In this document: piece after piece, positions 9,526 to 47,683 of the stretch | How the letters are laid out: each line of letters starts with the position of its first letter | How positions within the stretch are numbered: position 1 is the first letter of the stretch | DNA from: Chrysomallon squamiferum | Taxonomy: Eukaryota; Animalia; Mollusca | Direction of reading: 5' to 3' | Length of the DNA: 64,000 nt | NCBI GenBank assembly: GCA_012295275.1 | Contig: CM022668.1 | Coordinates: 11,036,001 to 11,100,000 of the forward strand | Translations under genes and position numbers: made by a program | The notes under the pieces: generated by a model | What the model was told of the DNA's origin: nothing | What the model saw: the letters and a program-made list of their open reading frames with translations, nothing else | The model's database searches: none

Positions 9526-12500
9526 ATGAATCAGAAGGACATTGTATTAAACATTTTCTTGGTGGGATGTTTCCTTCTGGTGTCGTCTGCGATGGAAAGA
9601 GTCTCCAGCAGTAAGATTTCATTTTCCTTTTACTTCTCTTTAAACAGCAGAAAGATTAGTTGCTGTTGTTTGGGGGGAGGGTGGTTTTTTTTTTTTTTTT
9701 TTTTTTTTTTCATTCTTTTAGAAATGTTAAATGATTTTGTTTATTAGTTTTATTTAAACACAGTAAGATCTTATTTTTCTTGCTGTTTATCTTTAAGCAG
9801 AATAAACTATTTATTTGTTTTAGTATTTTGTTTAGAAAAATGTAAAGCATTGTTGATTTGTTCTCATATTTTCTTTACACAGTAAAGCATTGTTTATTTG
9901 CTTGTTTTTATACTCTGTGTCTTTCCAGCTATACCTGGTTGTGAGTACATCGTTATTCCAGGCAGATATGGAGATGACTTCTATCTAAAAATTACAGGGT
10001 ACCATACACTTGAAGATTGTAGAAGGTTGTGTGACACACAAAACGGATACAATAATAAACCGTGTACTGCAGTAGAACATCTTGGCACCTACTGTTATTT
10101 GTATTCTTCCGTTTTCCCTTTCAGCTATTACTATTTTTCAACAATGTACATAAAATCCTGCAAAGACGGTAAGAAAATGTGTTGTTAAATATTCATTCAA
10201 GATTAGATGGTAATTTATGTCTTCTATTGATTTTTTTTCTGTTAAGAACAGAAGCTGCAAAAGTGCTACAAGAATTATAAAATATACTAACAATCTGCAT
10301 TTGGTTGTTGTTCCAACCAGTGATGCTTGACATGTTAATCAGATGAGAGAATAGTTAATATATGATTACTTTCTCCGGTTATCATTTAGCACTCCTTGTG
10401 TTTATTTTAATAAATCTACCTTTATTTTAGATATTTTAGAATTAAAATAAGAAAGATTTCTCTTTGTAGGCAAGGAACATTATTTTTCCTAAGGAAAATT
10501 TGTTTTGTTTTCTTTAAACAGTTTTTATAATCTGTCACAGGTACATGTGGATTACCATGTGCAAACGGCGCCACTGTAAACTTTGATGACTGTACTTGTT
10601 CTTGTTTGAATAACTGGGAAGACACTCTTTGTGGTAAGTTATTTCTTATTTGGTAACGTATTTGAATGAATGATAACTGTTCAGTGTAAAACGTCAAATA
10701 AACAAATGAATTCAGCATGCAGCGCAAAATGAGAATTAGGAAAAATTGATAAACTATTAGTAAACATTCAGAAGGTGACTAATGGAAAAGGAGAATCTGG
10801 TAAGACTCCATTACAAACTTTTCATTTTAAATTAGCAACTTTTTGGGATGTCCCTGAACATCATAACTACATAGGATCACAAAAAGTAAGGAATCATAAT
10901 TTACCTTGCTATAACATTTCAATGCTTATTAGCCAAGATGAAAACGTATTCCTTTCTAATGATATATCAGGTACGTGTGGATTTCCGTCTAAAAACGGTG
11001 CAATTCTAGTATGCAGGACTGTATTTGTTCTTGTATGGAAGGTGGGAAGGAATTGCCTTTCGTACGTTTATTTATTTATTTATTTATTTATTTATTTATT
11101 TATTTATTTATTTATTTATTTATTTATTATTTAAATTCAGATATATGCAACGAGGACTGTTTAAATGGCGGAGTGTTCAACTCAGATAACTGTACCTGTT
11201 CTTGTTTGAACAACTGGGAAGGAGATTTCTGTAGTAAGTATATTAATTCATATCATAATACGGCTTTATTCTCACGTCAGTTACTATAACTTATGCCTTT
11301 TCATTTTTTTTATTTTGTATTTATTATTTAAATTCAGATGTATGCAACGAGCACTGTTTAAATGGCGGAGTGGTCAACTCAGATAGCTGTACCTGTTCTT
11401 GTTTGAACAACTGGGAAGGAGATTTCTGTAGTAAGTATATTAATTCATATAATAATACGGCTTTATTCTCACGTCAGTTACTATAACTTATGCCTTTTCA
11501 TTTTTTTTTTTTTTTATTTATTATTTAAATTCAGATGTATGCAACGAGGACTGTTTCAATGGCGGAGTGTTCAACTCAGATAGCTGTACCTGTTCTTGTT
11601 TGAACAACTGGGAAGGAGATTTCTGTAGTAAGTATATTAATTCATATCATAATACGGCTTTATTCTCACGTCAGTTACTATAACTTATGCCTTTTCATTT
11701 TTTTTTTTTTTTTTTATTTTTTTAAATTCAGATGTATGCAACGAGGACTGTTTCAATGGCGGAGTGTTCAACTCAGATAACTGTACCTGTTCTTGTTTGA
11801 ACAACTGGGAAGGAGATTTCTGTAGTAAGTATATTAATTCATATCATAATACGGCTTTATTCTCACGTCAGTTACTATAACTTATGCCTTTTCATTTTTT
11901 TTTTTTTTTTATTATTTAAATTCAGATGTATGCAACGAGGACTGTTTCAATGGCGGAGTGTTCAACTCAGATAGCTGTACCTGTTCTTGTTTGAACAACT
12001 GGGAAGGAGATTTCTGTAGTAAGTATATTAATTCATATCATAATACGGCTTTATTCTCACGTCAGTTACTATAACTTATGCCTTTTCAGTTTTATTTATT
12101 TATTTATTTATATATTATTTAAATGCAGATGTATGCAACAAGGGCTGTTTAAATGGCGGAGTGTTAAACTCAGATAACTGTAACTGTTCTTGTTTGAACA
12201 ACTGGGAAGGGGATTTCTGTAGTAAGTATATTTTATAATGAATTCGTATGTTAATATGCAAAGAAGAAAATATTTAAATCCGCAATTTCTCGTTTTTCTT
12301 TTTCATTTATTTTCATTTATTTTCATTTATTTTGTTTTATTTATTTATTTTTTCATTTATTTTCATTTATTTTCATTTATTTTACTTTATTTTATTTATT
12401 TATTTATTTAAATTTAGATGTATGCAACGAGGACTGTTTTAATGGAGGCATCTTCAACTTAGGTGACTGCAGCTGTTCTTGTTTGAACAGCTGGGAAGGA

Positions 12501-46600: not shown

Positions 46601-47683
46601 CAACAACAACAACAACAAAAAACAAACAAACATAAAAAAACGTGTTACAGATGTTTAAATAAAAAGTTAAAACTAATAATAAAAAATAACTGAGTAATGT
46701 ATGAAGCAGTAAAACAAATAAGTATTTTATAGTCGTTTAAATAAAACAATTAAACAAATAATCTTTCTTTAACTCTTTTGTAAATTTAATTAATATAATA
46801 ATAATAAAAAAATAACTGTGGTTTAAATAAAATAATGAAAAGCTAAAGATTGTTTTAAAAGCATCAAAAGAATAAGTAAACAATATTTTAGTGTTAATTA
46901 AATAAAACATAAAACAAATAAACAAATTTACTGCTGCTTAAACAACACTGGACAAATAAAACAATATTTTATTGTTGTTTAATTAAAGGAAATAAACAAA
47001 TACAAAGTGTTGATATTTAAATAAAACAAGAGAACAAACGTGTATTTAAATAAAACACTAAAACAAATACACAGTTATACATTACTTGCTATTCAATATC
47101 ACAATGGAAATGAAAAATTGTTTACTGTCAAAATGAAGTATTAAAAAAAGAAAACAATGTTTTACTTTATTCAAATAAGACCGTAAAAAAATAACAGTAT
47201 TTACTATTTACTATTAAATAACAGAGCATAAAAATTATCAATGTTTTACTGTCTAAGAAAATTTTTACAGGAAATAAACAAAGTTTTACATTTATTTAAA
47301 TAAGACCTTAGTACTTAATATTTAATATTAAAAAAAATGTACATAATAAACAATGTATTACTGCCTAAATCAAATATTAGAACAAATCAACAATGATTTA
47401 CATTTTTCTAAATAAAATACGAAATCAAATTACCATTTTCTTCTGCTTAAATACAAACAGCAAGAAAAATAACACCTTACTGCGTTTAAATAAAACACAT
47501 AAACACAATCTTAGTGCTATTTCAATAAAGGAATGACAAAAAGAACAACAAAAATATTTCTGCTGTTTAAAGAGAAATAAAAGGAAAAGGAAATCTTACT
47601 GCTGGAGACTCTTTCCATCGCAGACGACACCAGAAGGAAACATCCCACCAAAAAATGTGTAATACAATGTCCTTCTGATTCAT
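43619..47683 (-). CDS. Gene D: PAN + 3 EGF + ShKT-like + His/Cys-rich terminal domain (~283 aa if a 1-nt frameshift in exon 1 is corrected; otherwise a young pseudogene)
   Basis: Exons (minus): 47683-47600 (84 nt vs 85 in gene A), 46557-46318 (PAN), EGF 45833-45741, 45498-45406, 44815-44717, ShKT-like 44224-44111 (CEEQVQSYVKEIIRNKCVADPSLWLYWCTKTCDMCHL), terminal 43746-43619 (KGPCLNRNEHLSEHLYRHASLEALHMFCDQRQNNECQHLCC*). All splice sites canonical. Confidence 0.75.
45590..45662 (-). pseudogene. Decayed EGF exon remnant inside gene D
   Basis: Minus strand reads LNDNYCTYS*MNSWEVKLC followed by gtatat; 5' part missing. Confidence 0.6.

Follow-up and report, generated by a model that had tools for sequence, protein, structure and literature searches.

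A 64,000-nt stretch of the genome of the mollusc Chrysomallon squamiferum (contig CM022668.1, positions 11,036,001 to 11,100,000; hereafter the window) carries four paralogous genes, termed A to D, which were delimited by a scan for cysteine-rich exons combined with checks of exon boundaries. All four follow the same order, namely a signal exon, a PAN exon, three to nine EGF-like exons and two ShK-like cysteine exons (S1 and S2), with A and B on the plus strand and C and D on the minus strand. Gene A combines a D-like head with a C-like tail, and this switch of partner is confirmed as real and lies far beyond chance. The window thus holds clustered paralogues with significant within-gene incongruence that includes non-coding DNA. 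The four genes are mosaics of one another, and on balance an old fusion of a D-type head to a C-type gene probably founded A and was followed by repeated conversion and probably by inversion.

Change of partner within gene A

In the three head exons, the nucleotide identity of A to D and to C, respectively, is 98.8 and 64.7% for the signal exon, 80.4 and 57.0% for the PAN exon, and 95.7 and 64.5% for the first EGF exon. In the three tail exons, the corresponding values are 70.7 and 96.0% for the last EGF exon, 58.6 and 96.4% for S1, and 60.0 and 96.3% for S2. Where C and D differ, A agrees with D at 136 columns and with C at 13 in the head exons, and with C at 113 columns and with D at 4 in the tail exons. 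Among sites informative across the four genes, those in the head support AD|BC (32), AC|BD (4) and AB|CD (2), and all 64 of those in the tail support AC|BD (other splits, 0). These sites change partner once, with a MaxChi value of 83.7 that was matched in 0 of 10,000 permutations.

The introns change partner together with the exons. The head introns of A and D are 84.0 and 84.8% identical, and the identity of A to C reaches 86.6 and 91.4% in the tail introns and 83.2% in the 3' region, against a shuffled-sequence background for introns of 67-72% (6/20 shuffles). Synonymous sites switch as well (synonymous divergence, dS, of 0.057 between A and C in the tail). For the tail, the approximately unbiased (AU) test rejected the other trees (p ~1e-54; 0.001 without S1), and the S1 and S2 trees separate A/C(/G) from B/D/E/F(/X) at 99-100%, where E, F and G are headless tails and X is an orphan fragment (Table 1). 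The first-pass annotation had already described the shared head exons of A and D, the shared late EGF, S1 and terminal exons, introns and 3' untranslated region (UTR) of A and C, and the strong divergence of A and C in their signal and PAN exons, all of which is borne out here. The A-C match is likewise real and inverted, but it is wider than the 12230-14500 given there.

Two tail lineages (A, C and G versus B, D, E, F and X) and three head types (A/D/X, B and C) are therefore represented in the cluster. The uniform intron phase noted in the first-pass annotation is phase 1 in all coding introns; the internal exon lengths are all divisible by 3, and phase-1 modules remain in frame on exchange. 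The signal exon measures 85 nt in A and in B and 88 nt in C. In both A and C, the 3' UTR is interrupted by an intron past the stop codon (13832-14175 in A), and the final exon is non-coding.

Probable order of events and competing explanations

The D-likeness of A stops at 10715, ahead of a decayed EGF exon that lies about 250 nt further on, and about 400 nt before a homogenised array of EGF exon-plus-intron units. This array had been proposed as the crossover site between head and tail, a role that the end of D-likeness ahead of it does not support. Moreover, the array is already C-like both at the 3' ends of its exons (33/33) and in its intron (94/104), and the switch of partner therefore precedes it. 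The decayed exon clusters with the first EGF exon of C in a nine-row tree (support 94/93) and is a candidate scar of an old event that attached a D-type head to a C-type gene, its identity of 71% being the reason for regarding this event as old.

The tracts shared by A and C differ in age. The youngest, at 12184-12600, is identical at 408 of 417 positions and starts in the middle of an exon (42/55 just before), and the remaining non-coding parts stand at 88, 91, 83 and 80%. Non-coding identity is accordingly heterogeneous, with 279/286 in the 98% tract, which was picked after inspection, versus 1190/1410 elsewhere (Fisher p 8e-12). The seventh EGF exon of C has no counterpart in A. A further source of evidence is fragment X, whose segment 25341-25650 is 93% identical to A at 10369-10679 (second intron and first EGF exon). 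It ends 46 nt past its EGF exon, some 25 nt from the inverted A-like flank of C (start ~25675), and this edge is a candidate inversion or deletion breakpoint; its position suggests that a duplicate of A may have donated its tail to C. The closest relative of A changes within 270 nt: X leads in the intron (34:2) and D in the exon that follows (2:9; p 2e-6). Exact runs of 58-80 nt connect otherwise diverged copies. Some exact runs stop at exon borders, and RNA-templated conversion of exons only was considered on that account; it was rejected, as introns are included both in the 98% tract between A and C and in the one between A and X.

Exchange between copies is well supported by these sequence comparisons, because exons and introns are incongruent, exact runs of 58-80 nt are present and the introns are uniformly in phase 1. 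That recombination or conversion swaps heads and tails, as the first-pass annotation proposed, holds to this extent. Its further implication that A was the recipient does not follow, because X, joined head-on to the C tail, lets C be the taker of an A-type tail, and a single swap is too simple because the tracts differ in age. In the favoured mosaic scenario, the first step would have been a join just past a D-type first EGF exon and just ahead of a C-type first EGF exon, leaving A with two first-type EGF exons, the second of which decayed. A-type and C tails would later have been re-homogenised patchwise; a duplicate of A may once have stood at 25 kb, as X suggests, with its tail flipped onto the C head. 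Short conversions would then have rewritten single exons, including the first EGF and signal exons of A and D and S1 of B and D.

Several observations weigh against this scenario. For the head, the AU test rejected neither alternative tree (p-AU 0.23 each), because the heads of B and C are both very distant, and the head signal is based on distances and site counts. The per-exon incongruence that had been anticipated is thus evident from site counts and MaxChi, with the AU test decisive for the tail only. The upstream flank, previously listed as common to A and D, gives a blastn match at 9334-9898 (E 4e-126), but a global alignment of 190 nt yields just 76% for A-D and 78% for C-D. Raw site counts give the decayed exon no preference for C over A (14:14) or over D (12:15), and the bootstrap support of its grouping lies under the 95 mark of the tool. 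The tract statistics are based on few sequences and AT-rich alignments, and all copies compared come from this one genome, so that the direction and order of exchange given here are tentative. Two further points, concerning public contigs, are given below with the check for an assembly artefact.

The strongest rival, which we consider unlikely, holds that the pairing in A is ancestral, so that C took an A-type tail, D took an A-type head and A is not a recombinant. This would agree with X, which resembles A closely and adjoins the inverted A-like tail of C as if a copy of A had donated its tail, with the extension of the A-C match over some 1 kb of 3' UTR and flanking DNA, and with gene D, which is frameshifted as assembled and whose tail exons are closest to B, E and F. 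However, two transfers of whole modules would be required, and the C-like decayed exon in A would have no explanation. Furthermore, B and D share a tail lineage and the first EGF exon of B is nearer to A and D, which agrees with a pairing of D-type heads and D-type tails.

A single recent crossover within the EGF array, between inverted C and D, is improbable as the origin of A. The clean, single switch of informative sites and the homology offered by near-identical EGF units would be expected under this explanation, yet the head of A is not that of D (PAN 80%, introns 84-85%), the tail of A is not that of C (non-coding identity 80-98%, with the seventh EGF exon of C unmatched), and D-likeness ends ahead of the array. 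In addition, a reciprocal inversion predicts different tails in A and C rather than the same one, and the uneven tract ages already largely refute a single event.

It is more improbable still that A is an assembly chimera, in which the 197-bp array led to the mis-joining of a genuine head and a genuine tail of different genes. Of eight public runs listed, seven contain part of A, with no RNA data set among those listed, which has no bearing on expression; four runs from three studies were compared over 9334-11260 (32/679 pieces). The array extends over 1.1 kb at 95%, and no piece among those listed spans it, which favours a mis-join and counts against the mosaic scenario; loose ends also reveal other genes with array-type exons. 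On the other side, the only N gap in the window is a block of 200 N at 91-290, and position 10715 is bridged into A's own intron by one listed contig in each of the four compared runs. These contigs extend more than 50 letters to each side of 10715 and have 7-11 letters unlike A in 114-147, and they may be sister copies, a second reservation about the same scenario. A D-type continuation at 10715 is present in runs X7 and X2 (X7 contained only 0.18 of words). Neither junction type is therefore confined to this assembly, although one of the compared runs may be its source. A mis-join is unlikely because both halves of A differ from C and D, which makes neither of them a collapsed copy, and because the array is already C-like, which places the switch earlier; it would also leave the exact B-D run and the A/X/D flip unexplained.

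The same contigs provide information on the PAN exon. An exact A-type stretch at 9935-10047 occurs in X1 and X2, and at 9988-10010 only the D-like letters were seen in X3 and X7. This hints that the samples may be polymorphic, with the reservation that contigs show presence and not absence. Loose contig ends at 9964-9969, 10004 and 10080 represent further PAN variants at the same segments.

Finally, plain duplication without exchange, with module-specific selection keeping exons alike, would account for exons that are often more alike than adjoining introns but is very improbable, given that introns, 3' UTR, flanks and synonymous sites switch too (dS 0.057 for the A-C tail and 0.026 for B-D S1) and that selection cannot explain 74 identical nucleotides in a pseudogene.

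Other genes and debris in the window

Table 1. Coordinates of the paralogues, shared tracts and fragments in the window
Feature	Position	Strand	Remarks
Gene A	9526-13831	+	9 EGF-like exons; spliced open frame 470 aa
A, D-like head	9334-10715	+	upstream flank, signal, PAN, first EGF, introns; matches 47872-45659 inverted
A, signal; PAN; first EGF	9526-9610; 9929-10168; 10541-10633	+	exon mapping
A, decayed second first-type EGF exon	10971-11061	+	91 nt, out of frame
A, homogenised EGF exon-plus-intron array	11107-12232	+	197 bp x 5.7, 95% matches
A, C-like tail	12083-14993	+	introns, 3' UTR, flank included; matches ~28780-25675 inverted
A, middle EGF exons (n=7); last EGF	11141-12510; 12896-12994	+	exon mapping
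A, S1; S2; 3' UTR exon	13331-13441; 13698-13831; from 14175	+	exon mapping
Extra A/C tail copy	15212-15724	+	decayed, internally deleted; 92% to C, 85-90% to A
Gene B	20757-24804	+	3 EGF exons; pseudogene; S2 24680-24804
Exact B-D run, 74 nt	23840-23913	+	D 44185-44112; 3' two thirds of S1
D-type remnant behind B	24922-25207	+	truncated D-type S2 (25013-25088, 95% to D) and D-type 3' flank
Orphan fragment X	25216-25650	+	A-type second intron and first EGF exon
Gene C	32773-26885	-	8 EGF exons; spliced open frame 438 aa; S2 27018-26885
Gene D	47683-43619	-	3 EGF exons; S2 43746-43619; frameshifted as assembled
Headless D-type tail E	48211-51503	-	S1 51503-51399, S2 48333-48211
Headless A/C-type tail G	53504-53919	+	partial S2 and 3' UTR exon
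Headless D-type tail F	56721-59833	-	duplicate of E
Headless A/C-type tail remnant	61909-62214	+	

The window is microsatellite-rich, with 29% GC and GT-AG introns, and a tandem-repeat scan across it returned 158 rows. Gene C is distinct in its signal exon, PAN exon and first four EGF exons, which are followed by the A-like tail, and its open frame depends on one GC donor. The segment 29766-30313 consists of 10 copies (98%) of a 54-bp unit that reproduces the 3' end of the third EGF exon of C with its non-canonical GC donor, and could be a source of alternative donors.

Gene B is a pseudogene with one stop in the signal exon, two in the PAN exon and loss of the GT donor after the last EGF exon. 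Its first EGF exon is 74-76% identical to those of A and D and 61% identical to that of C. Its S1 is 91.2% identical to that of D, and the B-D tail introns (64-68%) are at the level of shuffled background. Gene D consists of an A-like head, three EGF exons, a B-like S1 and an E/F-like S2. The peptide quoted earlier as common to B and D is found in both genes, but the assignment of a B-like ShKT exon to D is valid for its 3' two thirds, and the 5' part and the last coding exon belong with E, F and X. The signal exon of D, at 84 nt, is one base short of that of A, and the resulting frameshift leads to a stop after 47 aa as assembled. The diagnostic letter of D at A position 9550 is present in the four compared runs, and none of the 8 listed indels falls within the signal exon, so that the frameshift may be private or an error.

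Headless tails occupy the far end of the cluster. The segments 48209-53864 and 56724-62215 are the two copies of a duplication of about 5.6 kb (77-83%), in each of which a D-type tail on the minus strand stands back to back with an A/C-type tail on the plus strand; no signal, PAN or EGF exons were found between these tails. More decayed EGF-like remnants occur at 45591-45657 (minus strand, in the D intron past the first EGF exon) and at 7726-7803 (plus strand, upstream of A). Two segments, 915-2269 and 5275-6686, are 79-84% identical to the long intron of tails E and F (48336-49819 and 56865-58348); no exons were found beside them, and they may be either a repeat element or cluster debris. A less AT-rich repeat of 87% identity (42649-43110 and 63546-64000) resembles what we take to be a decayed long interspersed nuclear element (LINE) fragment. 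As judged from these copies, the history of the cluster is one of birth and death with recurrent exchange.

Predicted products and comparison with known systems

The second exon is supported by modelling as a PAN/apple fold. In Pfam, the exon of A matches PAN_1 at E 0.0039 and 17.4 bits, below the cut-off of 21.4, and there is no PAN match for C or D (A alone, 1/3). The top atlas clusters for the exon are PAN (score 0.94, 163 shared features). A search of 1.84 billion representatives with the exon or its alignment gave two matches, P0001 and P0002; the former, a bacterial protein, was rejected as spurious, and the latter is an 89-aa PAN-like protein that shares six invariant cysteines with A, D and C. 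A further homologue search recovered P0002 alone. The model has a predicted local distance difference test (pLDDT) score of 87.7, a Foldseek probability of 1.0 (best E 0.018) and template modelling (TM) scores of 0.68-0.75 to HGF/plasminogen N domains. No homologues of the exon were found among longer proteins, no metagenome locus was retrieved, and PDB sequences gave nothing meaningful. Between A and D, 23 of 79 PAN residues are changed around an invariant core of 17 residues, with modest clustering (p 0.013-0.03), which hints that the binding loops may vary; positive selection was not seen in the A-D comparison (non-synonymous divergence, dN, 0.22; dS 0.24). PAN/apple domains bind proteins or sugars.

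The EGF-like exons are 90-99 nt long, in phase 1-1, with six cysteines each (seven in the last one of C), and Pfam EGF matches were sub-threshold only, in 2 of 3 exons tested. The tail modules had been labelled ShKT, a domain defined by six cysteines paired C1-C6, C2-C4 and C3-C5 as described in PMC6409789, and this label is not supported for A, C or D. In these three genes, both S1 and S2 have five cysteines, the second one being absent from S1; an S1 with six is found only in pseudogene B. Pfam ShK matched none of five S1 and none of four S2 exons, although short divergent modules are often missed, no relevant PDB sequence was found, and a low-confidence model of S1 (predicted TM score, pTM, 0.28) had no Foldseek match. 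The Lys-Tyr dyad is likewise not seen, with no lysine ahead of the fourth cysteine in A, B, C, D or E; according to the same source, channel activity is possible even where the dyad is lacking (PMC6409789). As the cysteine spacing looks ShK-like by eye, S1 and S2 are better termed ShK-like. In A and C, the five-cysteine S1 and S2 (13331-13831 in A) might form a disulfide between modules or chains. The S2 exons are histidine-rich, and a pattern H-x3-H...E-x2-H-M-F-C common to both tail lineages is suggestive of a putative metal site. Overall, the product is predicted to be a secreted protein with a loop-variable PAN binding head, an EGF stalk of variable length and a cysteine-rich tail. A more ambitious proposal, which we regard as doubtful, is a germline-combinatorial recognition or effector family, in which loop-variable PAN heads, two kinds of cysteine-rich tail and variable EGF stalks would be combined, pseudogenes and headless fragments would act as conversion donors and individuals would differ in their heads.

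Within 55 kb, the cluster preserves several layers of exchange between exon modules: a candidate scar of an old fusion, recent conversion tracts, a probable breakpoint of an inversion and leftover fragments. If PAN loops track changing ligands (microbes, prey, gametes or substrate), it would exemplify how a secreted invertebrate protein diversifies combinatorially. For such a family, trees of whole genes and assemblies from short reads are misleading. The process is known from other gene families, and the family itself is apparently undescribed: a signal-PAN-EGF-ShK-like family was not found in the literature or in sequence libraries with exon-sized queries, subscription journals being mostly uncovered.

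The closest parallel in process is the Sp185/333 (SpTransformer) family of sea urchins, whose similar genes are described as tightly clustered in DNA rich in microsatellites and as affected by segmental duplication; gene conversion is postulated via shared coding repeats, and assembly artefacts are a known risk (PMC3091723). According to that account, Sp185/333 genes have two exons, with the repeats and shared elements inside the second, whereas in the present cluster whole phase-1 exons and multi-exon blocks with introns are exchanged, and the copies have diverged much further, the types being 55-65% alike. Immune induction has been demonstrated for Sp185/333 (PMC3091723); the present cluster is known from sequence alone, and no sequence relation is claimed. 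The stickleback spiggin genes are chimeric paralogues produced by unequal crossing over and conversion (PMC4989455). They encode a vertebrate mucin-derived glue and are documented by transcripts and PCR-verified breakpoints, with retrotransposition also invoked (PMC4989455), in contrast to the PAN-EGF-cysteine-rich family described here, whose copies lie on both strands.

With respect to domain composition, the nearest molluscan proteins are CAP-ShK type II, M12-ShK and multiShKL of Cumia (PMC6409789) and P-vulgata_14 of a limpet (PMC7333891), which likewise combine a signal peptide with variable runs of EGF-like and ShK-like modules. Their ShK-like modules are also hard to recognise, some without cysteines or the Lys-Tyr dyad (PMC6409789, PMC7333891). 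However, they have CAP or astacin heads, and no PAN-headed form is named in the available text of either source. Both are transcript studies with genomic mosaicism outside their scope, and the words "recombination" and "conversion" occur 0 times in the available text of PMC6409789. As for the PAN head, the predicted fold of exon 2 in A is similar to PAN/apple domains of HGF/plasminogen N, leech anti-platelet protein, factor XI and prekallikrein (TM 0.65-0.75), but sequence identity is 7-21%, and the sequence searches gave no relative of the same architecture.

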